Shown one piece after another: positions 39,368 to 50,855 of a stretch of DNA of 64,000 bases (the first letter of the stretch is position 1; every line of letters begins with the position of its first letter). The stretch spans positions 1 through 64,000 of IMG/VR virus record IMGVR_UViG_3300021375_000017; one strand, given 5' to 3'. A program made the position numbers and the translations under genes. Below the pieces are notes generated by a model that made no database searches, had not been told where the DNA came from, and was given only the letters and a program-made list of their open reading frames with translations. This DNA comes from a virus.

Positions 39368-39866
39368 TGTTGTTCCAGAGTCATACTGTAAAAAACTAAT
39401 TGAGATATTTGAAAACTCCTCTAATCAGGAGTTTATCAATAATGATCACAAACCATGTTTCAGTCAGGTTAATCTGAGTAAAGAAAATCCTGAAATGGTC
39501 AGACAAATCATTCCCATTATTAAAGGTGTACATACTCTGTATAAGAAGGAAACCAAATCTTATTTTCTTCCAGAGTTAAATGCCCTTGAAGAACTTAGGA
39601 TTAAAAGATACCTTCCTAATGGTGAGGAAAGGTTTGATGAACATGTAGACGTGACTGACTATCCCTCATCAAGAAGGTCAGTTGCATTTTTATTTTATCT
39701 GAATACTAATGATGGTAATACAGTTTTTTCTAAACAGAAGTTGAACATTAAACCAAAGTGTGGTAGGGTAGTAGTATTCCCTCCTACATGGGAATATCCT
39801 CATGCAAGACTCCCCCCAACAACTAGTAACAAATACATCATGAGTACATATATTCACTATGGATAA
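39351..39866 (+). CDS. 2OG-Fe(II) oxygenase
   Basis: HVD, FLFYLN, VVVFPP.W.YPH and KYIMSTY. Confidence 0.8.
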   Translation: MVRHYDVVPESYCKKLIEIFENSSNQEFINNDHKPCFSQVNLSKENPEMVRQIIPIIKGVHTLYKKETKSYFLPELNALEELRIKRYLPNGEERFDEHVDVTDYPSSRRSVAFLFYLNTNDGNTVFSKQKLNIKPKCGRVVVFPPTWEYPHARLPPTTSNKYIMSTYIHYG

Positions 39867-40491
39867 GGTTGAATTTTTAGTTCTGAAAAATCTAATACAC
39901 AATGAAAAATACTTGAGAAAGGTTCTTCCATTCATTAAAGAAGAATATTTTGATGATACTAAATATAAGGTAATCTTCGACGAGATCTCTACCTTTACTG
40001 CTGAGTATAACGAACTCCCTACAAAAGAGATTCTCAATATTGAGATTGAAAAGAGAAGAGATATTAATGAGGACTCTTATAAACAGATTTCTCATGTAGT
40101 TAATTGTCTTGAGGACGATGTTGTAGAGTTTGATTGGTTGGTTAACACTACTGAGAAGTGGTGTCGTGACCGTGCCATTTATCTTGCCTTGATTGAATCC
40201 ATTCAGATTGCTGATGGAGGAGATGTCAAGAAGGCACCAGATGCCATTCCATCTATTCTGTCTGATGCTCTGGCAGTTAGTTTTGACAACCATGTAGGAC
40301 ATGATTACCTTGAAGATTATGAATCACGATACGAGTCTTATCACAGGAAGGAGGAGAGAATTGAATTCGATCTCGACTATTTTAACAAAATCACGAAAGG
40401 TGGGCTCCCTAACAAAACTCTTAACATCGCACTTGCTGGTTGCGTTCATCCAGAAACTAAAGTTAAAATTAGATTTAAGAAGATTTCTTGA
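39859..40491 (+). CDS. gp41: Replicative helicase, N-terminal part, fused to a 16-aa split-intein N-fragment (40441-40488)
   Basis: EKWCRDRA, SFDNHVGHDY and KITKGGLP.KTLNIALAG, then CVHPETKVKIRFKKIS*. Confidence 0.92.
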   Translation: MDKVEFLVLKNLIHNEKYLRKVLPFIKEEYFDDTKYKVIFDEISTFTAEYNELPTKEILNIEIEKRRDINEDSYKQISHVVNCLEDDVVEFDWLVNTTEKWCRDRAIYLALIESIQIADGGDVKKAPDAIPSILSDALAVSFDNHVGHDYLEDYESRYESYHRKEERIEFDLDYFNKITKGGLPNKTLNIALAGCVHPETKVKIRFKKIS

Positions 40492-41143
40492 TTATGGAAT
40501 TTGGTGCTGGTTCTCCAGTTCCAAATTTCCATCCTTCGTTTAATTTAGTATCAATATTTTCTGGTAGTATTCTTTTCCATCCCTTTGTTCCTGGTAAGTA
40601 CATTACCTTTTTTCCTTTATGTGCTTTACCTCCAAGAGATGCTCTTTGTTGTCTTCCTTGATTAGACGCCCAGTAATTGAATTCTTTAGATGCTCTTTGC
40701 TTTCCTCCAAAAGATGCTCTTTCCTTTCTACCTTCTTCTGTACTCCAGTAATAAAAATTTTTAATGTTATCTTTTAAATATTCTTGTTTTTGAGTTTCCA
40801 TTCCTTTGACCATCCATTCTTTTCTTTCATCTATTGGAACAGAAAAGAAACCAATCTTATTATCTCTACAAAATTCCCCAATTATTTTTCTATATTGTGG
40901 AGATAAGTTTGCTCCTAACATTTTCATAGACCTTAAGTCATTTGGATTTTTGTATATTTTCCATAACAAATAATGTGCTATGATATGTTCTCTAACATTT
41001 AGGTATGTAAGGTTACAATCATCATCTGTTCCTCCCATATGTTTAGGAACAACATGATGTTCGTGTAGTCCTGAATATTTTTTATAATCTTCTTTTCTTG
41101 ACTTATTGCCTTTGCATAAGTTAGAATAGATACGATCAAACAT
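40475..41143 (-). mobile_element. HNH homing endonuclease lying antisense between the gp41 split-intein halves
   Basis: HEHHVVPKHMGG...NLTYL.VREH..AHYLL. Minus-strand TATAAATA at 41166-41173. Confidence 0.88.
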
Positions 41144-41177: not shown

Positions 41178-42353
41178 ATGTGGATTGAAAAAGAAACAAC
41201 AATTGCTGAAATCAAAACATTACTTGATAATGGATATGAAGTAGAAGTTGATTCTCCCGATGGATATGTTCCAGTTAATTTCTTTATTAACAAAGGAATG
41301 TATGATGAATATGTTTTGAGAATCGATGGCATTGATGAACTTATAAGATGCAATGCCAATCATTTATTTCAGACATCTTTGGGGTGGATGAGTGCATCGC
41401 ATCTTTATAAAAAATATAAAATAATGCATTTTTTAACCGAGAGTGGTTATAAACTTGGTAGTGTATTTAAAACAGGAAATCAAATACCTATTGTTGATAT
41501 TAATGTAAATCATCCAAATCACAGGTATTATACTAATGGAGTTTCTTCTCATAATACTGGCGTCGGGAAATCTCTATTCATGTGCCATGTGGCTAGCTCC
41601 GTCTTGCTCCAAGGGAGGAACGTTCTCTACATTACAATGGAGATGGCAGAAGAGCGCATTGCTGAAAGAATTGATGCGAACCTCTTGAATGTAAATATCC
41701 AGGAAATTGTTGACCTTCCAAAACAAATGTTTGAAACAAAGGTTACAAACCTGGCACAAAAGACTCAAGGTCACCTAATTATTAAGGAGTATCCTACTGC
41801 CTCTGCTCATGCTGGACACTTCAAATCACTTCTTAATGAACTTGCACTTAAGAAGTCATTTCGACCTGATATTATTTTCATTGATTACCTTAATATATGT
41901 TCTTCCGAAAGATATCGCGGAAATAGCACTGTCAATTCATATTCATATATTAAAGCAATTGCTGAAGAACTTAGAGGACTTGCTGTTGAAGCAAACGTCC
42001 CTATCATATCTGCCACTCAGACCACTCGTTCTGGTTATGGTAGCTCTGACGTTGAGCTTACTGACACTAGTGAGTCCTTTGGTCTCCCTGCTACTGCTGA
42101 TCTTATGTTTGCCCTTATTTCGACTGAAGAGTTGGAATCGTTGGGACAAATACTTGTAAAGCAATTGAAGAATAGGTATAATGATTACTCTGTCCATAGA
42201 CGTTTTGTTGTTGGTATTGATCGTGCCAAGATGAGATTATATGATTGTGAACAGTCTGCACAGGATGACCTTCTTGACAATGGTAAGGAAGAAGAGTACA
42301 ATAATGATGAACAAGAAAAACCTAAAAAATCATTTAGTGGATTTAAATTTTAA
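41178..42353 (+). CDS. gp41: 126-aa split-intein C-fragment (41178-41555) fused to the helicase C-terminal part
   Basis: Block B CNANH, block F IVDINV and block G SSHN, then TGVGKS, which completes Walker A. DYLNIC, SESFG and KNRY follow. Confidence 0.93.
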   Translation: MWIEKETTIAEIKTLLDNGYEVEVDSPDGYVPVNFFINKGMYDEYVLRIDGIDELIRCNANHLFQTSLGWMSASHLYKKYKIMHFLTESGYKLGSVFKTGNQIPIVDINVNHPNHRYYTNGVSSHNTGVGKSLFMCHVASSVLLQGRNVLYITMEMAEERIAERIDANLLNVNIQEIVDLPKQMFETKVTNLAQKTQGHLIIKEYPTASAHAGHFKSLLNELALKKSFRPDIIFIDYLNICSSERYRGNSTVNSYSYIKAIAEELRGLAVEANVPIISATQTTRSGYGSSDVELTDTSESFGLPATADLMFALISTEELESLGQILVKQLKNRYNDYSVHRRFVVGIDRAKMRLYDCEQSAQDDLLDNGKEEEYNNDEQEKPKKSFSGFKF

Positions 42354-42757
42354 TGACTGTAAATACTGAAGCATATCTTGAATTTGTCAATGCCGTCACC
42401 TCACAACAAAGTAAAGATCACGAAGCATTCCTCTATCGTCTTCAAGAATTGGAAGGCCAAGAGTTTCCTACCGAGCGACTGTTTACTGCTGCTGTAGGAA
42501 TGTCTGCTGAGGCAGGTGAGTTTACTGAAGTTGTCAAGAAGATCGTCTTCCAAGGTAAACCAGTAAATGAAGAAAACTTATTTCATCTGAAACGTGAACT
42601 TGGTGATATTATGTGGTATGTTGCTCAAGCGTGTATGGGTCTTGATACGACCATTGATGAAATTATTGAGATGAATGTTGAGAAACTGAAGTCTCGTTAT
42701 CCTGGTGGAGAATTTTCCGTAAAACATTCCGAAGTCCGAAAGGAAGGTGATGTATGA
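42353..42757 (+). CDS. mazG: MazG-family nucleotide pyrophosphohydrolase
   Basis: EAGEF.E.VKK, ELGDIMWY and N..KL..RYP. Confidence 0.9.
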   Translation: MTVNTEAYLEFVNAVTSQQSKDHEAFLYRLQELEGQEFPTERLFTAAVGMSAEAGEFTEVVKKIVFQGKPVNEENLFHLKRELGDIMWYVAQACMGLDTTIDEIIEMNVEKLKSRYPGGEFSVKHSEVRKEGDV

Positions 42758-43449
42758 CCTACGACTTCTCATTTGCACATTCACCTGAAGGATTTGATAA
42801 TCATATCAACGATAGTATTCGTGGATATTCAAACCTCCTAGAAGATACTGTATCGTTCTCTCGATACTTTGTGGAGGATCATACTAAAGTTGTTGATGTT
42901 GGATGTTCAACTGGTAAACTTACCAAGATGATTATTGACAACAATCCTAATCGTCAGTACGCACATTATGTGGGTGTAGAACTTGCTGGTAGTTTTTATG
43001 ATGATCTTGAGGAACGTCATATAGAGGTTCGTAAAGAATACCCTGGTGCATTGTTAGAATGGGTTCGTGGTAATGTCACTAACTATGAGTTCAAGAACTG
43101 TTCTCTAGTAACATCACTGTTTACTCTACAGTTTATGCCCAAGACTACCAGACAAGATACGATCAATAAGATCTATAATGGTCTCAATGAAGGTGGTGCA
43201 TTTATCTTTGCTGAGAAGTTGATGTGTGAGAATGCATTCTTTCAAGAACTTCTTACCTTTAATCATTATGATTACAAGAGAAAGACTTTCAGTGCAGAAC
43301 AAATCATGGATAAGGAGAAACAACTTCGTGATATGTTGAAACCTAATACATGGTCTGAACTAAGAGATATGGTGATGACTGCGGGGTTCAAAGACTGTCA
43401 GATCTTCTGGAGAAACCATCAGTTCGTTGGAGTTATTGCAATTAAGTAA
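42754..43449 (+). CDS. cmoA: CmoA-like carboxy-S-adenosylmethionine synthase homologue
   Basis: Collinear with bacterial CmoA by eye: S.RGYSN, VD.GCS.G, FTLQF, R...I.KIY.GL..GGA...EK, H.D.KR, AGF and F....AIK. Confidence 0.75.
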   Translation: MTYDFSFAHSPEGFDNHINDSIRGYSNLLEDTVSFSRYFVEDHTKVVDVGCSTGKLTKMIIDNNPNRQYAHYVGVELAGSFYDDLEERHIEVRKEYPGALLEWVRGNVTNYEFKNCSLVTSLFTLQFMPKTTRQDTINKIYNGLNEGGAFIFAEKLMCENAFFQELLTFNHYDYKRKTFSAEQIMDKEKQLRDMLKPNTWSELRDMVMTAGFKDCQIFWRNHQFVGVIAIK

Positions 43450-44846
43450 TGTGTGGAATTATTGGTGGATTTGATATTCCACAAATTGAAAAAGGTTTGA
43501 ACTCTATTATTCATAGGGGACCAGATAACCAACAGATTGTCCAAATGGAGAACATCTATTTTGGACATGTTCGTTTGTCTATTATTGATACTAGTAATGA
43601 GTCAAATCAGCCATTTGTTTATGGTGACACCACCATGATCTTCAATGGTACCATTTGGAACTATCGTGAGTTAAGAGAAGAATTGAATATTGAAACAAAG
43701 ACTTCAGGTGACACTGAGGTACTTTGTGCTATCTTGGATAGGTATGGTATTGAAGGATTGAATAAAGTTCAAGGAATGTTTGCCATTGCATTTACTCAAG
43801 GAGACGGTTCTATTACTATTGTGAGAGACCGTCATGGTGAAGTTCCTCTTCATTACTCTCTCCTTACAGGTCTCTTTCCATCATTCTCTTTCTGTTCAGA
43901 GATCAAAGGTCTTTTGGCAATGGGGGAGATTGGTAAAACAGTTAAAATGTTAGAACCCGGATCATTTATTAAGGTTTCCTCTGATTACTCTGTAAAAGAG
44001 GGGTATTGGTATAACGTCAGAGAACATATCGAAGATACTTCTACATGGAACTTTAATGATTCTAAAGCGATGGTTTATAGAAACATTGTGATGGGTTCAT
44101 TTGAAAGAACTGTTGCCGATGTTCCTGTTGCATGCTTACTCTCTGGTGGTATTGATTCTGCTATCACAACTCTCATTGCATCTAAACACATCCCAAACTT
44201 GGTGACATATACTGCAGTCCATGATGAGAACTCAAAAGATTTAAAGTCTGCTAGAAAAGTTGCTAAATATTTGGGAGTTGAACTCCGAGAAGTTATAGTT
44301 CAACCACCTACCATCGATGATGTTAATGATGTTATCAATACCATTGAGATGCCATATAAGGCCCAAGTAGAGATTGGATATCCTTGTATTCAACTTGCAA
44401 AAAGAATCCATGAAGATGGTTTTAAGGTGATTATGTCAGGTGAAGGTAGTGACGAACTCTGGGCATCCTATGGTATGAGTTACCATGGTATTAAGGATAA
44501 AGGTTGGACTGACTATAGAATAGGACTCTTTGGTTCACAACATCGTAAAAATTTCACAAGATGTAATAAGATTTTTATGAAGTATGGTATTGAATGTAGA
44601 CTACCTTTTTTAAACACTCAGTTAGTAGAGACTGCACTTGGTCTCAGTCAAGATACTGTTTGGGACGGTAAAGCTAGACCTAAAGCAATTCTCCAAGAGG
44701 CTTTCAGAGGTCAACTCCCAGATGATATTGTTGATAGAAAGAAGGTAGCATTTCAGGATGGTATGGGAATCAAATCTCTTTACGAAGACATTGTAGATTC
44801 TCCAAAAACATATTACACTAAACACTATAAGAAACAGTTCTCATGA
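43449..44846 (+). CDS. Asparagine synthetase B-like glutamine amidotransferase / ATP-dependent amidase
   Basis: Ntn MCGI, HRGPD, H.RLSIID, FNG.IWN, SGDTEV, PP-loop LSGGIDS, SGEGSDE and R.PFL. Confidence 0.88.
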   Translation: MCGIIGGFDIPQIEKGLNSIIHRGPDNQQIVQMENIYFGHVRLSIIDTSNESNQPFVYGDTTMIFNGTIWNYRELREELNIETKTSGDTEVLCAILDRYGIEGLNKVQGMFAIAFTQGDGSITIVRDRHGEVPLHYSLLTGLFPSFSFCSEIKGLLAMGEIGKTVKMLEPGSFIKVSSDYSVKEGYWYNVREHIEDTSTWNFNDSKAMVYRNIVMGSFERTVADVPVACLLSGGIDSAITTLIASKHIPNLVTYTAVHDENSKDLKSARKVAKYLGVELREVIVQPPTIDDVNDVINTIEMPYKAQVEIGYPCIQLAKRIHEDGFKVIMSGEGSDELWASYGMSYHGIKDKGWTDYRIGLFGSQHRKNFTRCNKIFMKYGIECRLPFLNTQLVETALGLSQDTVWDGKARPKAILQEAFRGQLPDDIVDRKKVAFQDGMGIKSLYEDIVDSPKTYYTKHYKKQFS

Positions 44847-46012
44847 AACTCCCCTACAAATTACAAGATGTTTATGACGGTGAAGCTCAACAGAAGTTCA
44901 CTGTCATTTCTACGTTCGCTGGTGGAGGTGGTTCGTCCACTGGTTATCGTCTTGCAGGTGGTAAGATCCTCTGTATCAATGAGTTTGTAGAAGAGGCAAG
45001 AAATACTTATTCCGAGAATTATCCATCTACTACTATTTTACCTGGTGATATTAAGGAGTTGACAGGTAAAGACTTCCTTGAAGCCACTGGTCTCAAACAA
45101 GGAGAACTTGATATTCTTGATGGTTCACCACCATGTTCTGCATTCTCTGTTGCAGGTTCAATGTGTCATAACATCTATGAAGAAGAGAGGGTAGACTTAT
45201 TTGGAAACACCTACACCACTAGAGTTAGTGGTAAACATTCTGATGGTTGGGGAAAGACAAAAACTTATTCTGACGGTAAACAAGTTGAAAATATTGAAGA
45301 TTTGTTTTTTGAATATATCCGTATAGCAAAAGACATTCAACCAAAAGTAATTGTTGCAGAGAATGTCAAAGGATTGACTGTTGGTGAAGCTAAAACATAC
45401 TATGCAAAGATTACAAATGCATTTACAGAAATTGGATACCTAGTCACTTCTAAAGTAATGAAAGCATCAAATCATGGTGTGGGACAAGGACGGGAGAGAC
45501 TTATCTTTATTGGAGTTCGTGAAGATATTGCAGATAAGATCGGAATGTTGATTACTGGAGTCAATAGTATATTTCCCAGACCTTCAAAAGAATCAACTAC
45601 AATTTCTGATATCATTGATGGTGTTGAGAATAATTCTGAAGATGTTAAAACTCTTACTGAAAAGTTGGTAAGTAGTAACATATACAAAAATGTTATCAGT
45701 AAGATGCCCAAGAATCCAGATAAAGTTTTGACTGGTATGGACTATCACCCTAAAGGACATTGTTTTAATACAAAGAGAGTCTCTTTAAAAAAACCATCTC
45801 CAACTCTTACTGCTAGTGGTGGTTTGATTCATTGGAACGAAGATCGTCCATTGACTGTTCCAGAACTTAAACGTATTCAATCACTTCCTGATGACTTTGT
45901 TTTGACTGGTACATATTCTCAACAGTCTGAAAGAGTGGGTAGAATGGTTCCACCTCTGATGATGAAAGCAATAGCAGAAAACATTTACAAAGAAGTCCTA
46001 TCTAAACTATAG
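44843..46012 (+). CDS. DNA cytosine-C5 methyltransferase-fold enzyme, predicted carboxymethyltransferase
   Basis: Motif I FAGGGG, IV GSPPC, VI ENV, VIII Q.RER, IX R.LT..E..RIQ, and X VGRMVPP (Arg in place of Asn). Confidence 0.88.
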   Translation: MKLPYKLQDVYDGEAQQKFTVISTFAGGGGSSTGYRLAGGKILCINEFVEEARNTYSENYPSTTILPGDIKELTGKDFLEATGLKQGELDILDGSPPCSAFSVAGSMCHNIYEEERVDLFGNTYTTRVSGKHSDGWGKTKTYSDGKQVENIEDLFFEYIRIAKDIQPKVIVAENVKGLTVGEAKTYYAKITNAFTEIGYLVTSKVMKASNHGVGQGRERLIFIGVREDIADKIGMLITGVNSIFPRPSKESTTISDIIDGVENNSEDVKTLTEKLVSSNIYKNVISKMPKNPDKVLTGMDYHPKGHCFNTKRVSLKKPSPTLTASGGLIHWNEDRPLTVPELKRIQSLPDDFVLTGTYSQQSERVGRMVPPLMMKAIAENIYKEVLSKL

Positions 46013-46061
46013 AAACTCTTCAATATAAATAATGATAATAGAAGTTGTTAGAACTAAAACC

Positions 46062-47534
46062 ATGTCGGATATGAGTAATCTGTACAGAGCTTATTCAGCT
46101 GTACACAGTTCTGAAGTTAGTGATCAGTTGAGTGAGTCTAGAGATCTCATTTCTGATATGCAGTTCAACCAACTGAACTCCTCTGATCTTCAGGAAGTTG
46201 CTGAAGAGATTCTGGAAGAGATGTTTGAACTTAGTCTTGATATTGAACAATCTTCTGATATCATTGCTGATATTTTGAGTGAGGCACTGAAGACCAGTCA
46301 GTCTGACCTCAAGTCACAAAAGATTGACTATATTGGAGAAGCATTTGATGCTGCTCTTGAGAATGGTCATACTGTAGAAAGATTCCTTGGTTATAGAAGG
46401 TCTAAGAAAGTTCAGGAGAACTTCCACAATACTTCCAACGAAGATCGTAGTAGTAAGAGACTTCACGAAGCCCTGATTGCTCAAGAGAGAAAGAACATCA
46501 AAGAAGGTATTCTTTCCCTGATTGAGAAGAAGACAAAAGATTCTTCTTACCTTGAGACCAACATGAAGAAGAGAGCGGAGAATAATGAGAAGGCCCGTAA
46601 GGACATGGAGAAGATGGGTTCAATGAAGAACCCCCAACTTGAAGAGTTCTCTCAAATCAGAAAAGATTGGAGTAGTGCCTACTCTTCCATCTATGAGAAG
46701 ATGGATCCTGTTGGTCAGGAAGATGGTGACATCGATAATGATGGTGATGAGGATAAGTCTGATAAGTATCTTGCTAATCGTCGTAAGGCCATTGGTAAGT
46801 CTATGGGTAAGAAAGGTAAGTGTGAGAAGTGTGGTAAAGATCCCTGTGAGTGTGATAAGAAAGAAGTAGAAGAAGGTTACAAGGAACTTCCTAAGAACAA
46901 GATGTTCCGTAAGGCAGGTAACCTAGGACGTGAAGCGATCAGTACTCCTATTGATCCTGAGAAGCGTCAAAAGGCATATGATCGTTCTAAGAAAATCGTT
47001 AAGACTCTCAACAAAGCAAACGAAGAAGTCCAACAGGTTGATGAAGCAATCACCAGCGAAAAGGGTAAAGAAAAAATGAAGAAGATGATTGATGCTCGCA
47101 CCACTGATTCTGGTAGAGCAAAGCCAGGTAAAGGTCAAAACGTTAAAGACATTAGGCACATTGGTCGTGCTAATGTTGATGGGTATGGTGGTACACCTTC
47201 CAATCTAAAGGTTGCCAAGAACCCAGTAAAATCTAACTTCACTGGTCTCAATAGTGGAACCGGCAACAAAGCAGCAAAAAGAGCAGCAGCACTAAAGAAA
47301 GAAGAAGTAACATTCTCTGAAGCTGAACTGAAAGCCATTCAGACAAAGGTTGATGCATGGGATGTTGAAGAAGGTTATCAGCGTAATCCCGAGAAGGGAG
47401 AGGCTCAAGCAAGAAAGTCTGAAACTTCTGGTCAAAAGACAGAGAGAAATGTCCGTGATAGACTGAAGACTATGGATCCTAAGAAGGCTGAAGCAATGAA
47501 GAAACAGATGAGAGCTGTTGGTTTAAGTGTTTGA
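46062..47534 (+). CDS. Modular late protein, probable head-internal protein
   Basis: TATAAATA at 46025. Acidic N-half, then basic modules separated by hydrophobic-X-E sites. Confidence 0.55.
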   Translation: MSDMSNLYRAYSAVHSSEVSDQLSESRDLISDMQFNQLNSSDLQEVAEEILEEMFELSLDIEQSSDIIADILSEALKTSQSDLKSQKIDYIGEAFDAALENGHTVERFLGYRRSKKVQENFHNTSNEDRSSKRLHEALIAQERKNIKEGILSLIEKKTKDSSYLETNMKKRAENNEKARKDMEKMGSMKNPQLEEFSQIRKDWSSAYSSIYEKMDPVGQEDGDIDNDGDEDKSDKYLANRRKAIGKSMGKKGKCEKCGKDPCECDKKEVEEGYKELPKNKMFRKAGNLGREAISTPIDPEKRQKAYDRSKKIVKTLNKANEEVQQVDEAITSEKGKEKMKKMIDARTTDSGRAKPGKGQNVKDIRHIGRANVDGYGGTPSNLKVAKNPVKSNFTGLNSGTGNKAAKRAAALKKEEVTFSEAELKAIQTKVDAWDVEEGYQRNPEKGEAQARKSETSGQKTERNVRDRLKTMDPKKAEAMKKQMRAVGLSV

Positions 47535-47549
47535 TATCTCGGAGTCCCG

Positions 47550-49583
47550 ATGAAAGACGTATTTAAATTTCTAAAGGACTCTAGAAAACTCCTGGAGTCC
47601 ACAACCTCTGAGAGGGCGGCTGAACTTGGTTACGAATATCGTGCCCGTGGAGTTTGGGGTGACCCAAGAACCAATAAGAGATATAGGACTGATGGTAATC
47701 GTTTCGTAGAGATTGACGAACCTAAAAAACAAGAAAGAGATCCTAAGGAAAAGGAACCCAAAACACTTTCCCAATTCAAGAAAGATGTTCCTCAACAGAA
47801 ACAACCTGAAGAGGAAGTACCTTCTGTTGCAAATCAGATGGATAGAGTTGTTCCTGGTGGACCAACTGAAACTGCAATAAGTTCAGGTGACCAGAAGACT
47901 GTTGAAAAACAACTCTCTCGTGGTAGAGAGAATGTTCAAAGTCCTGAGAGAAAGAAGCAAGTTGCTCAACAAGCATCTGATATTATTGCACAGTTACAAG
48001 CAGAGAAAGAGGCCGAAGAGAAGGCTGAACTGGAGGCAGAAGCACAGGCTCAGGCAGAATTAGAAAATCAAGAACCAGTAGAACCAGAAAAAGGTCCAGA
48101 GGATTTTAGGACTATTGATGATGTAGTTGCAGAGAAAGAAGAAGAGATTGACTATAATGATGATGAAGAAGCCTTTGAACAAGAGTATGAAGCATATGAA
48201 AAAGAAGCAGCAGAGATGATGAAGTCTCTGACTGACCGTCAAAAAAAGATGATGGAGAAAAAGTTTGCTTCTTTCACAGAAAGTTTGAAGAAGATTCCTT
48301 CTGCAACAGATAAGAAATCATTCCTTCAGTCAATGGCTCATGCAAAGTCATTTGAAGGTCGTGTGAATGCTGGTGCTGGTAAGAATAACCTTGGTTATGC
48401 TGACATTCAGAACTTAATGGCCAATCGTGATCGTTTATTGGAAGGTTATGGTGATGGATCTCCAGAACAAATCAAAAAGTTTGTACAATCTGTAAGAGCT
48501 ATTAAGGTATCTGATGAATTTGTAGATGCTTCTTTTGAAGTTCTTCCTGATGCGTTCAAAAAATCACTAAGTGGTAAGGGTCAAGTAACAACTGACAAGT
48601 ATGTGTCTGACGATAAGGCACATAAAGATATGCATTATCTTGGTAGAAATGAAGATGGTACTGCCAGAAGAGGTCCTGCTAGTAATAAAGACAGAGCAAA
48701 GTTGATGTGGAGAATCTACCTAGAACAGGGTGGACGTGATGCATACACAGGTCTTCCTCTAGACCTCCAAGCCATGGACCTAGAACATGTTCGTGGGTTC
48801 AACAATAAAGATGGTGGAAAACCTGGTAAGGTAGAGTGGGAACAAAGAGAGAATGATGATAACATGACTCTTATTAATTCCAATGTCAACCAACAGAAGG
48901 TAGACCTTTCAATGGAGGAATTCTTTAAGAAGAAGGTTGACCCTAATAAGGACAAAGGAGAAGCTGACTTTGGTGGTATTGAAAAACTATTTGACAAACA
49001 AAACCAGATTGGTACTGTTGGAGATGAGTTAGCACAAACACTTCTTGGTGAAGGTGGTAAGGGATTGGCCGAGGGTGTATCAAGAGAAATTCTTGATGAA
49101 CACTTTGCATCTGATGACAATAGTTACAATAGTCTGAGAGAAGAGTTCCGTAAGGTAGCAACTACACCAAAAGATAAGGCAAAGGCTGCTGGTATGAAGT
49201 CTAAACTTGGTAAGACACTTCTTAAAGCAACTGGTCTTGCTCGTGGTATTACTGATAAGAGTGGTAGAAGAACTGTTGCACTACAAGAAAATGTATATCG
49301 TGGTTTCTTGAAGTCCATGGCAAATGCAAAACCTGCAGACCGTCAAAAATATATGGATGGTTGGGCAGAGGCTATCAAACAGGGTAATGAGGAGAGAGAA
49401 CCAAAGGCAGTTAACCGTAAGTTACTTGAACTTGGTTTGATTGATGAGGACATCCTGAATGATAAGAAATTAGGTAAAGTTTTTAAAGAAGAATACGATG
49501 AAACTAGGAGAACATCTAAAACATATGGTAGGATGTTTATATCCAAGTACCACAAGGATAATAAATACTTCTATGGAATCTGA
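47550..49583 (+). CDS. Large protein with a C-terminal HNH nuclease domain of Cas9-HNH-like pattern
   Basis: IYLEQGGRDAYTG..LD...DLEH...DNMTL.....N..K at about 48700-48900. Confidence 0.6.
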   Translation: MKDVFKFLKDSRKLLESTTSERAAELGYEYRARGVWGDPRTNKRYRTDGNRFVEIDEPKKQERDPKEKEPKTLSQFKKDVPQQKQPEEEVPSVANQMDRVVPGGPTETAISSGDQKTVEKQLSRGRENVQSPERKKQVAQQASDIIAQLQAEKEAEEKAELEAEAQAQAELENQEPVEPEKGPEDFRTIDDVVAEKEEEIDYNDDEEAFEQEYEAYEKEAAEMMKSLTDRQKKMMEKKFASFTESLKKIPSATDKKSFLQSMAHAKSFEGRVNAGAGKNNLGYADIQNLMANRDRLLEGYGDGSPEQIKKFVQSVRAIKVSDEFVDASFEVLPDAFKKSLSGKGQVTTDKYVSDDKAHKDMHYLGRNEDGTARRGPASNKDRAKLMWRIYLEQGGRDAYTGLPLDLQAMDLEHVRGFNNKDGGKPGKVEWEQRENDDNMTLINSNVNQQKVDLSMEEFFKKKVDPNKDKGEADFGGIEKLFDKQNQIGTVGDELAQTLLGEGGKGLAEGVSREILDEHFASDDNSYNSLREEFRKVATTPKDKAKAAGMKSKLGKTLLKATGLARGITDKSGRRTVALQENVYRGFLKSMANAKPADRQKYMDGWAEAIKQGNEEREPKAVNRKLLELGLIDEDILNDKKLGKVFKEEYDETRRTSKTYGRMFISKYHKDNKYFYGI

Positions 49584-49589
49584 TAAAAG

Positions 49590-50855
49590 ATGAAAAGTTT
49601 CTTTAGATTTATTACAGAAGCAAGAAGTACACCTGTATCTGAGAAGGCCAAGAAGCTTGGTTTAGTCAGTGATGGTAGTGGTGGATGGAAAGATAGAGCA
49701 GGTAAGACTGTTGCGAGAACAGTTGGTGGTGAACTTAAGTTTACTGATAGAGGAACATCATCAGTTCAGTCTGATGGTGGTCAACAACCCGTAGCACAAC
49801 AGAGACAAGAAGTTCCTCAACAAAAGAGAGCGTCAACTGAAGAACCTACTGAGAGAAGAAGTGGTGGTGATGATGAGGAAGAAGGTGGAGATGGTAAAAG
49901 GACTGGAGAAAATGCAACCCTAGTATTTGGTAGATTTAATCCCCCAACTGTAGGACATAAGAAACTTCTTGATGCAGCTCTTCAGATTTCAGGTGATGGT
50001 GACCTGAGAATTTATCCTTCCAGATCGGTTGATCCTAAGAAAAATCCTTTAGAGACTGGTCAGAAGACAGAACTCATGAAGAAGATGTTCCCCGATCATA
50101 GTGATAATATTATTAATGATGAGAGTATCAAAACTATATTTGATGCATTGAAGTTGGCAAGTAATGATGGATTCTCAAATGTAAAAATTGTTGTAGGTTC
50201 TGATCGTGTTGCTGAGTTTGACAATCTAGCTCAGAAATACAATGGTAAACTATATGACTTTGAAGAGATTGAAACTATCTCTGCTGGAGAAAGAGATGAA
50301 GATGCAGAAGGTGTTTCTGGAATGTCTGCCTCTAAGATGAGAAAGGCTGCAACAGAGAATGACTTTGAGACATTCAGAAAAGGTATTCCTGATACTTTGG
50401 ATGATACTGCAACAAAACAGATGATGAATACTGTTCGTAAAGCAATGCAGGTTCAGACAGAATCTTGGAGTCTATGGGAAATTGCTCCTAAGTTTGACTG
50501 GAAGAACTTGAGAGAGAACTATGTAACTGGTAAGATCTTTAAGATTAATCAGTTGGTAGAGAATTTGAATACAGGATTTGTAGGTAAGATTGTTCGTAGA
50601 GGAACTAACTATCTTATTTGTGTGACAGAAGATAATATTATGTTTAAGTCCTGGATCCGTGATCTCCGTGAATATGAAGAGAAGAAACCTGATACCCGTG
50701 TTGGAAGTCCTGGTTACTTTAAGTATGCTGCCAAGATGACACCTGGTTTTGATAAAGGAGATAAGACCAATCTTCAACCTGGCGGAAAACCTTACAAAGG
50801 CCCTAAGACAAATATCAAGGAATTCATAAATAGATACAAAAGTAGAAATCTCTGA
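49590..50855 (+). CDS. Cytidylyltransferase-like (HxGH-family) nucleotidyltransferase
   Basis: FGRFNPPTVGH, VVGSDR and MSASKMR. Confidence 0.8.
   Translation: MKSFFRFITEARSTPVSEKAKKLGLVSDGSGGWKDRAGKTVARTVGGELKFTDRGTSSVQSDGGQQPVAQQRQEVPQQKRASTEEPTERRSGGDDEEEGGDGKRTGENATLVFGRFNPPTVGHKKLLDAALQISGDGDLRIYPSRSVDPKKNPLETGQKTELMKKMFPDHSDNIINDESIKTIFDALKLASNDGFSNVKIVVGSDRVAEFDNLAQKYNGKLYDFEEIETISAGERDEDAEGVSGMSASKMRKAATENDFETFRKGIPDTLDDTATKQMMNTVRKAMQVQTESWSLWEIAPKFDWKNLRENYVTGKIFKINQLVENLNTGFVGKIVRRGTNYLICVTEDNIMFKSWIRDLREYEEKKPDTRVGSPGYFKYAAKMTPGFDKGDKTNLQPGGKPYKGPKTNIKEFINRYKSRNL

Follow-up and report, generated by a model that had tools for sequence, protein, structure and literature searches.

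The open reading frame (ORF) at 44843–46012 is most probably (about 93%) an ortholog of CmoX, a DNA cytosine C5-carboxymethyltransferase, and lies in a translationally coupled mazG–cmoA–asnB-like–cmoX cassette of an uncultivated T4-like cyanophage; this assignment draws on sequence comparison with a published relative. The window, that is, the whole stretch of 64,000 nucleotides that we analyzed, covers positions 1 to 64,000 of IMG/VR record IMGVR_UViG_3300021375_000017. The source is a 92-kb linear virus record with an estimated completeness of 48%, and the deposited phages closest to it are T4-like cyanophages in the family Kyanoviridae (RN05-S, RB11-B, S-B43, S-B05, and S-CRM01). An earlier note on this DNA had read an Arg in methyltransferase motif X as the mark of carboxymethyl transfer. 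This reading is essentially right, and it is not new: the natural Asn-to-Arg carboxymethyltransferase is already known, its structure, mutagenesis, and search signature having been published in December 2025 (Yang et al., Nat Commun 2025, PMC12783734). The protein of the IMG/VR record is very probably within the candidate set of that article.

The ORF encodes a C5-cytosine methyltransferase homolog with an Arg in motif X

The ORF belongs to the C5-cytosine DNA methyltransferase superfamily. It matches PF00145 in Pfam (2e-54; 185.7 bits versus a cut-off of 22) and TIGR00675 in NCBIfam (1.6e-46; 159.5 bits versus a cut-off of 100.65), and motifs I, IV, VI, VIII, and X follow one another in the canonical order (Table 1). 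Codon n begins at 44843 + 3(n − 1); the codon of the catalytic Cys98 is at 45134–45136, and R367 is the AGA at 45941–45943, in the context ERVGRMVPP (E363 to P371). Both the translation and a direct reading of the codon confirm the Arg that had been reported in motif X, and the PC (C98), ENV, and RER motifs described as intact were all found in the 389-aa translation.

In HMMER pairwise alignments, R367 pairs with N304 in the FGNSV of M.HhaI and with the Asn in the IGNAVP of M.HaeIII, while C98 and S99 pair with C81 and Q82 of M.HhaI, respectively. The Arg is neither a sequencing error nor a chance variant, because it is invariant in 84/84 close relatives, a 90%-identity cluster with 39 members, seen in JGI, ENA, and Logan assemblies, contains this very 389-aa allele, and, of the 128 top-scoring representatives at 50% identity that can be aligned here, 91 have Arg. 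The SPPC motif with its catalytic Cys, which has the same numbering in SpCmoX (S95-P96-P97-C98; see below), is likewise invariant in all 84 close relatives. The protein shares with M.HhaI and M.HaeIII the fold, the motif order, and the covalent Cys mechanism, yet it differs from M.HhaI at two pocket positions (N304 to R367 and Q82 to S99) and from both enzymes in having ~37 extra residues between motifs IV and VI and in its predicted cofactor, carboxy-SAM (Cx-SAM) instead of SAM.

Table 1. Coordinates of the cassette genes and of the CmoX motifs in the window
Feature	Coordinates	Strand	Basis or remark
MazG-like nucleotide pyrophosphohydrolase	42353..42757	+	Pfam PF03819, 2e-08; stop overlaps cmoA start (ATGA)
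cmoA, putative carboxy-SAM synthase (SAM + prephenate -> Cx-SAM), 231 aa	42754..43449	+	TIGR00740; likeness to SpCmoA
AsnB-like glutamine-type amidotransferase, 465 aa, "CmoY" slot	43449..44846	+	Pfam GATase_6/7 and Asn_synthase
cmoX, predicted DNA cytosine C5-carboxymethyltransferase ortholog, 389 aa	44843..46012	+	Matches to PDB 8YF3 and PF00145
Motif IV, catalytic Cys98 then Ser99 (GSPPC)	45134..45139	+	HMMER versus HhaI: PCSAFS versus PCQAFS
17-aa in-frame insert, residues 109-125, loop after motif IV	45167..45217	+	Gap versus SpCmoX
Motif VI, E173-N174-V175	45359..45367	+	Columns invariant in alignment of relatives
Motif VIII, R217-E218-R219	45491..45499	+	R217 and R219 invariant in alignment of relatives
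Motif X, V365-G-R367-M-V-P-P371	45935..45955	+	Aligns with SpCmoX R350 and HhaI N304

Comparison with the crystallized ortholog SpCmoX

PDB entry 8YF3 is the DNA cytosine C5-carboxymethyltransferase SpCmoX of Synechococcus phage S-B43, crystallized with Cx-SAM (PMC12783734). The 389-aa protein matches it over its full length (E value of 3.6e-194; residues 1–389 versus 1–372, with one 17-aa gap) at ~80% identity. The two numberings are shared up to residue 108 and, after the gap, the proteins are co-linear, which makes R367 the counterpart of R350. With Cx-SAM, and not with SAM, SpCmoX modifies cytosine within GC motifs by carboxymethyl transfer; in its 1.9 Å structure, R350 stands in place of HhaI N304 and touches the carboxymethyl group of Cx-SAM, and F25, E47, F48, and D69 contact the adenine and ribose of the cofactor (PMC12783734). 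According to our alignment, every Cx-SAM-binding or catalytic residue named in that article (F25, E47, F48, D69, C98, and R350 as R367) is identical, and the ENV and RxR motifs are also shared.

It had been proposed that the Arg forms a salt bridge with the carboxylate of Cx-SAM and identifies natural DNA carboxymethyltransferases. The proposal is supported by the 80%-identical SpCmoX, by the R350 contact in 8YF3, and by the use of R350 as a search signature: a search of IMG/VR, UniProt, and MGnify with this residue and SPPC gave 5,615 candidates, on whose contigs 4,257 CmoA sequences were recognized (PMC12783734). An AF2 model of the protein, built from a 65-sequence alignment, has a pLDDT of 93.2; its top Foldseek match is 8yf3 (TMt of 0.97), and M.HhaI and M.MpeI (4dkj) are matched at a TMt of 0.78–0.80 and a TM of 0.62, respectively. 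By analogy with the 80–85% identical S-B43 orthologs, Cx-SAM use and the Arg–carboxylate contact would be expected to carry over to the protein described here. What differs from SpCmoX is the 17-aa hairpin insert (residues 109–125), a diverged stretch at residues 221–300, and motif IV, in which a Ser stands in place of the Gln.

Organization of the cassette and proposed pathway

The cassette follows a gp41-like helicase gene in the order mazG, cmoA, asnB-like, and cmoX, with start and stop codons overlapping at all three junctions (ATGA, TAATG, and ATGA, respectively); the phage cmoA, to which cmoX is linked, lies one gene upstream. S-B43, also a T4-like cyanophage, has its genes at the same genomic position, after a gp41-like helicase and mazG and next to cmoA, and MazG is found upstream of the cassette in most related cyanophage loci. 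The gp41/DnaB-like helicase of the window is split into two plus-strand pieces, at 39859–40491 (phrog_19, DnaB-like replicative helicase) and 41178–42353 (DnaB_C), with a minus-strand homing-endonuclease gene between them (40475–41143; phrog_655). Downstream of cmoX, the region at 46032–50855 is unlike S-B43 and encodes 500-aa and 677-aa proteins without Pfam domains (phrog_764/24078 and phrog_3561) as well as a 421-aa cytidylyltransferase-like protein (PF01467, phrog_395).

The product of the ORF at 42754–43449 matches the TIGR00740 CmoA model with an E value of 1.6e-31, its 109.8 bits being below the cut-off of 193.3. It is 85% identical to CmoA of S-B43 (SpCmoA), which was assayed and is a carboxy-SAM synthase (PMC12783734), and its segment QIMDKEKQLRDM is nearly the same as the corresponding EIMDKEKELRDM of SpCmoA, a fully active enzyme. 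This 85% orthology to an assayed protein supports the assignment of the gene as a probable carboxy-SAM synthase gene. Among deposited phages, 67 genomes contain CmoA homologs with 27–32% identity, and most of these genomes belong to Erwinia/Dickeya jumbo phages, PaBG-like Pseudomonas phages, and a Staphylococcus SPbeta-like phage; the tRNA-methyltransferase labels on such phage homologs may be mis-annotations of DNA-modification genes.

In the pathway that we propose, CmoA would make Cx-SAM from SAM and prephenate. CmoX would flip the cytosine out, Cys98 would attack C6, and the C5 carbanion would accept the carboxymethyl group from Cx-SAM while R367, at the position of the motif X Asn of ordinary C5-methylases, would hold the carboxylate of the cofactor; beta-elimination would then release 5-carboxymethylcytosine. 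The AsnB-like enzyme would probably adenylate the carboxylate and amidate it with glutamine-derived ammonia, yielding 5-carbamoylmethylcytosine and not the glycine amide of S-B43. CmoA and CmoX activity, Cx-SAM exclusivity, the Arg–carboxylate contact, and the GC motif were all shown on the S-B43 orthologs only (PMC12783734); for the cassette of the window, we infer both the sequence that the 389-aa CmoX allele targets and an amide as the product.

A glutamine-type AsnB homolog occupies the slot between cmoA and cmoX

In the AsnB-like protein, an N-terminal Ntn glutaminase domain (MCGIIG) is followed by a PP-loop synthetase domain (LLSGGIDS). Its match to TIGR01536 (3.9e-78; 263.7 bits) is just below the cut-off of 267.1; therefore, we describe it as AsnB-like and not as an AsnB equivalog. 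All 39 unique homologs, ranging from 37 to 99% identity, keep Cys2, R42, N66, G67, D88, and SGGxDS unchanged. The position equivalent to Glu76 of E. coli AsnB is Thr here and in 30 of the 39 homologs; glutaminase competence is thus not certain.

CmoY of S-B43 (SpCmoY) is an asparagine-synthetase-like ligase that adds glycine and, according to the supplement of the article, has no glutamine-hydrolyzing (amidase) domain (PMC12783734). We considered and rejected an SpCmoY-type glycine ligase as the identity of the gene at 43449–44846: whereas SpCmoY is a 271-aa, synthetase-only protein, the neighboring ligase here is a full-length glutamine-type AsnB homolog of 465 aa, with an extra glutaminase domain and a C-domain that is only 21% identical to SpCmoY.

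The best match in a deposited phage is gp124 of Streptomyces phage TurkishDelight (41% identity over the full length; E value of 2e-113), which an exact look-up identifies as UniProt A0A7T0Q3R0. In the CmoX article, this entry is the exemplar of the ligase cluster that ranks second in size, for which the use of glutamine-derived ammonia is predicted and from which the enzyme was not obtained soluble (PMC12783734). The gp123–gp125 region of TurkishDelight resembles our locus in having a glutamine-type AsnB homolog, flanked in that phage by two methyltransferase genes. It differs in its order (methyltransferase, amidotransferase, and methyltransferase), in the ParB-like genes upstream, and in belonging to an unrelated phage lineage with an actinomycete host.

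The cmoA/cmoX cassette is modular. Among the 80 closest IMG/VR loci, all from uncultivated cyanophages, the AsnB type is commoner than the glycine-ligase (SpCmoY) type in the cmoA–cmoX slot (50 versus 25), and the slot is empty in 3; it is also empty in RN05-S and S-CRM01. Judging from its domains and conserved residues, the AsnB-like enzyme likely amidates 5-carboxymethylcytosine to 5-carbamoylmethylcytosine. A literature search for 5-carbamoylmethylcytosine in DNA found no relevant report. We put at even odds the fuller proposal that the cassette makes this base, not yet observed, with an AsnB-type enzyme that depends on glutamine and takes the place of the glycine ligase of S-B43, and that the insert-bearing CmoX could target a non-GC sequence.

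Alternatively, CmoX may be a carboxymethyltransferase as proposed, with an AsnB-like partner that adds a non-ammonia group (an amino acid or an amine) or uses another substrate, in which case the final base would not be 5-carbamoylmethylcytosine. We regard this as the less likely outcome, though a serious one: the presumed Glu76 equivalent is Thr in most homologs, and AsnB-fold enzymes include lasso-peptide and lactam cyclases, to which there are weak NCBIfam matches. In addition, the published ligase clusters include several whose active sites are distinct and whose amines are unknown (PMC12783734). Yet the invariance of Cys2, R42, N66, G67, and D88 across 37–99% identity is hard to explain without glutamine hydrolysis, and the AsnB-type gene is always in the cmoA–cmoX slot (50 of the 80 closest loci). 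Amidation with glutamine-derived ammonia thus remains the scenario that we favor.

The motif X Arg and a possible partner in motif IV

The earlier note had also predicted that an R367N mutant would revert to methylation. The ortholog contradicts this prediction, since SpCmoX R350N is inactive with both SAM and Cx-SAM (PMC12783734). The equivalence that it drew between R367 and N374 of M.MpeI is supported indirectly, by the alignment with HhaI N304 and by the literature, in which HhaI Q82/N304 and MpeI Q136/N374 are treated as the same conserved motif IV/X positions; a direct alignment was not obtained, as the HMMER match to M.MpeI (4dkj) covers residues 161–282 only and the C-terminal fragment alone had no MpeI match. 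The motif X Arg of CmoX is likewise said to mirror MpeI N374K (PMC12783734).

To enlarge the cofactor pocket, methyltransferase engineering mutates HhaI Q82 and N304 as a pair, and a single change, N374K in M.MpeI or N377K in M.MedI, is enough to gain carboxymethyl transfer. In both the engineered enzymes and the natural family, the motif X Asn is replaced by a positively charged residue that pairs with the carboxylate of Cx-SAM. In contrast, the engineered enzymes carry Lys and not Arg, are CpG specific, and keep methylation, while the natural family uses Cx-SAM only and, in S-B43, has a GC target. One natural homolog (P0025) has Lys at motif X (FERIGKSVPP) and Ala after PC, mirroring the engineered M.MpeI N374K; in a viral-contig scan seeded with this sequence, the relatives were all of the Arg or Asn type.

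Among the 50%-identity representatives, the residue after PC is Ala or Ser in 71/91 Arg-type proteins and Gln in only 1/91, as opposed to Gln in 21/28 Asn-type proteins. The main text of the CmoX article does not mention this difference at the Q82 position (PMC12783734). When phylogeny is taken into account, the covariation of motifs IV and X is suggestive only, with ~3 concordant, 0 discordant, and 3 uninformative independent contrasts (median P value of 0.25). The dead R350N mutant and the distinct motif IV pocket residue of the Arg-type proteins make it probable that the Arg/Asn switch is accompanied by one or more additional changes. The tendency of Arg-type proteins to lack the motif IV Gln (HhaI Q82) may explain the dead R350N mutant and suggests a two-residue signature.

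These data bear on whether Arg or Asn at motif X could by itself set carboxymethyl or methyl transfer, with R367N producing an ordinary methylase. The gain of carboxymethyl transfer by one change in M.MpeI and M.MedI, albeit in the opposite direction, would agree with such a switch, as would the lability suggested by a FastTree phylogeny of 125 representatives, on which R and N interchange at motif X at least 6–11 times. However, the loss of activity of SpCmoX R350N with either cofactor (PMC12783734) and the differing motif IV pocket make it improbable, and we favor a motif X Arg that acts together with other changes.

A residue other than Asn at motif X does not always mean Cx-SAM. Namely, Leu-type relatives (PCPP...IGLMVAP; IMG/VR loci L267–L275, e.g., L269:5441–9286) have no cmoA. 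These C5-methylases are flanked by genes for a dNMP kinase, a TET/JBP-like dioxygenase, and a DNA alpha-glucosyltransferase homolog, which form a different cytosine hypermodification cassette, presumably the phage route from 5mC to 5hmC to the glucosylated base.

Arg-type enzymes are linked to cmoA

To score linkage, we built a CmoA profile iteratively from fetched IMG/VR loci, which converged at 188 matches with a clean score gap, sorted the C5-methylase ORFs by their motif X residue, and counted cmoA when it was within 5 kb. The enrichment next to cmoA that the earlier note anticipated for enzymes with a GR-type motif X was borne out: cmoA is present for 170/196 unique Arg-type ORFs from three scans and for none of the Asn-type relatives (0/8 in the first scans and 0/6 in a later one), a control set that is small (14), as a scan seeded with Asn-type representatives gave mostly Arg-type viral loci. 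When at least 2.5 kb of flanking sequence is available on both sides, the proportion for the Arg type rises to 57/57, and among close relatives cmoA is found in all 64 loci with enough upstream sequence. After clustering at 70% identity, cmoA accompanies 54/58 Arg-type and 0/7 Asn-type clusters. The first Arg- versus Asn-type comparison has a raw Fisher P value of 2.8e-07, calculated over loci that are related and not phylogenetically independent. Overall, the results support an association of the Arg type with cmoA, the direction of which is unambiguous and agrees with the published numbers. The Arg/Asn contrast also provides an independent negative control beside the published work on CmoX (PMC12783734).

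An ordinary SAM-dependent 5mC methyltransferase with a neutral motif X Arg, next to a cmoA serving tRNA modification, would satisfy the Pfam and NCBIfam models, which say only C5 DNA methylase, and would have company in other non-Asn variants of apparently ordinary methylases, such as the Leu type beside TET/JBP and glucosyltransferase genes, but it is very improbable given that the 80%-identical SpCmoX uses Cx-SAM only and not SAM, that an invariant Arg goes closely with cmoA whereas Asn-type relatives show no such linkage, and that the CmoX article reports no CmoB-type tRNA enzyme for these phages (PMC12783734).

Some loci carry tandem pairs of Arg-type CmoX genes beside one cmoA (IMG/VR loci L187, L188, L189, L203, L207, L218, L215, L219, and L245). 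In one example, the motif X of the first paralog is ERCGRMVPP and that of the second is ERCGRMVPS. Such tandem paralogs suggest two carboxymethyltransferases with different targets in one phage.

A lineage-specific insert and probable exchange of cmoX alleles

The spacing from PC to ENV is 75 residues in the CmoX ortholog of the window and ~38 in HhaI and HaeIII. The insertion of ~35–40 aa that had been noticed after the PC motif is therefore real relative to these enzymes, but it is made of two layers, and only 17 aa are lineage specific. According to the consensus lines, a ~20-aa WGK..YSD segment occurs throughout the subfamily, also in Asn-type members, whereas the 17-aa insert (residues 109–125) is present in 9/84 relatives, all from this lineage. 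Nearly all members of the 39-member 90%-identity cluster are 389 aa long. A search for direct or inverted repeats flanking the insert found none. In the AF2 model, this region contains strands at 112–117 and 123–128 with a pLDDT of 65–74, and the insert is predicted, with modest confidence, to form a beta-hairpin. Since the Foldseek library contains 333 residues of the 8yf3 chain, versus 372 in the sequence, we infer that part of the loop region after motif IV is disordered in the crystal.

The divergence of this allele from the 372-aa clade is found mainly in the loop and in residues 221–300, the presumed target-recognition region, which is 44–66% identical to SpCmoX and its 372-aa clade. Because of this low identity and of the 17-aa insert in the catalytic-loop region, the activity level and the sequence specificity could differ from those of SpCmoX. 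At another IMG/VR locus (L015), compared with 42364–46865 of the window, the CmoA and AsnB-like proteins are 98–99% identical, while CmoX, which lacks the insert there, is only 81% identical. This disparity indicates a probable exchange of cmoX alleles by recombination within one cassette.

Implications

With the role of the motif X Arg already published, the remaining interest of the locus lies in a predicted glutamine-type ligase and in a CmoX allele bearing an insert. It offers a clear natural instance of the glutamine-type ligase variant. If the proposed product is true, 5-carbamoylmethylcytosine would add a new base to those of DNA and give DNA labeling chemistry a further amide-type handle.
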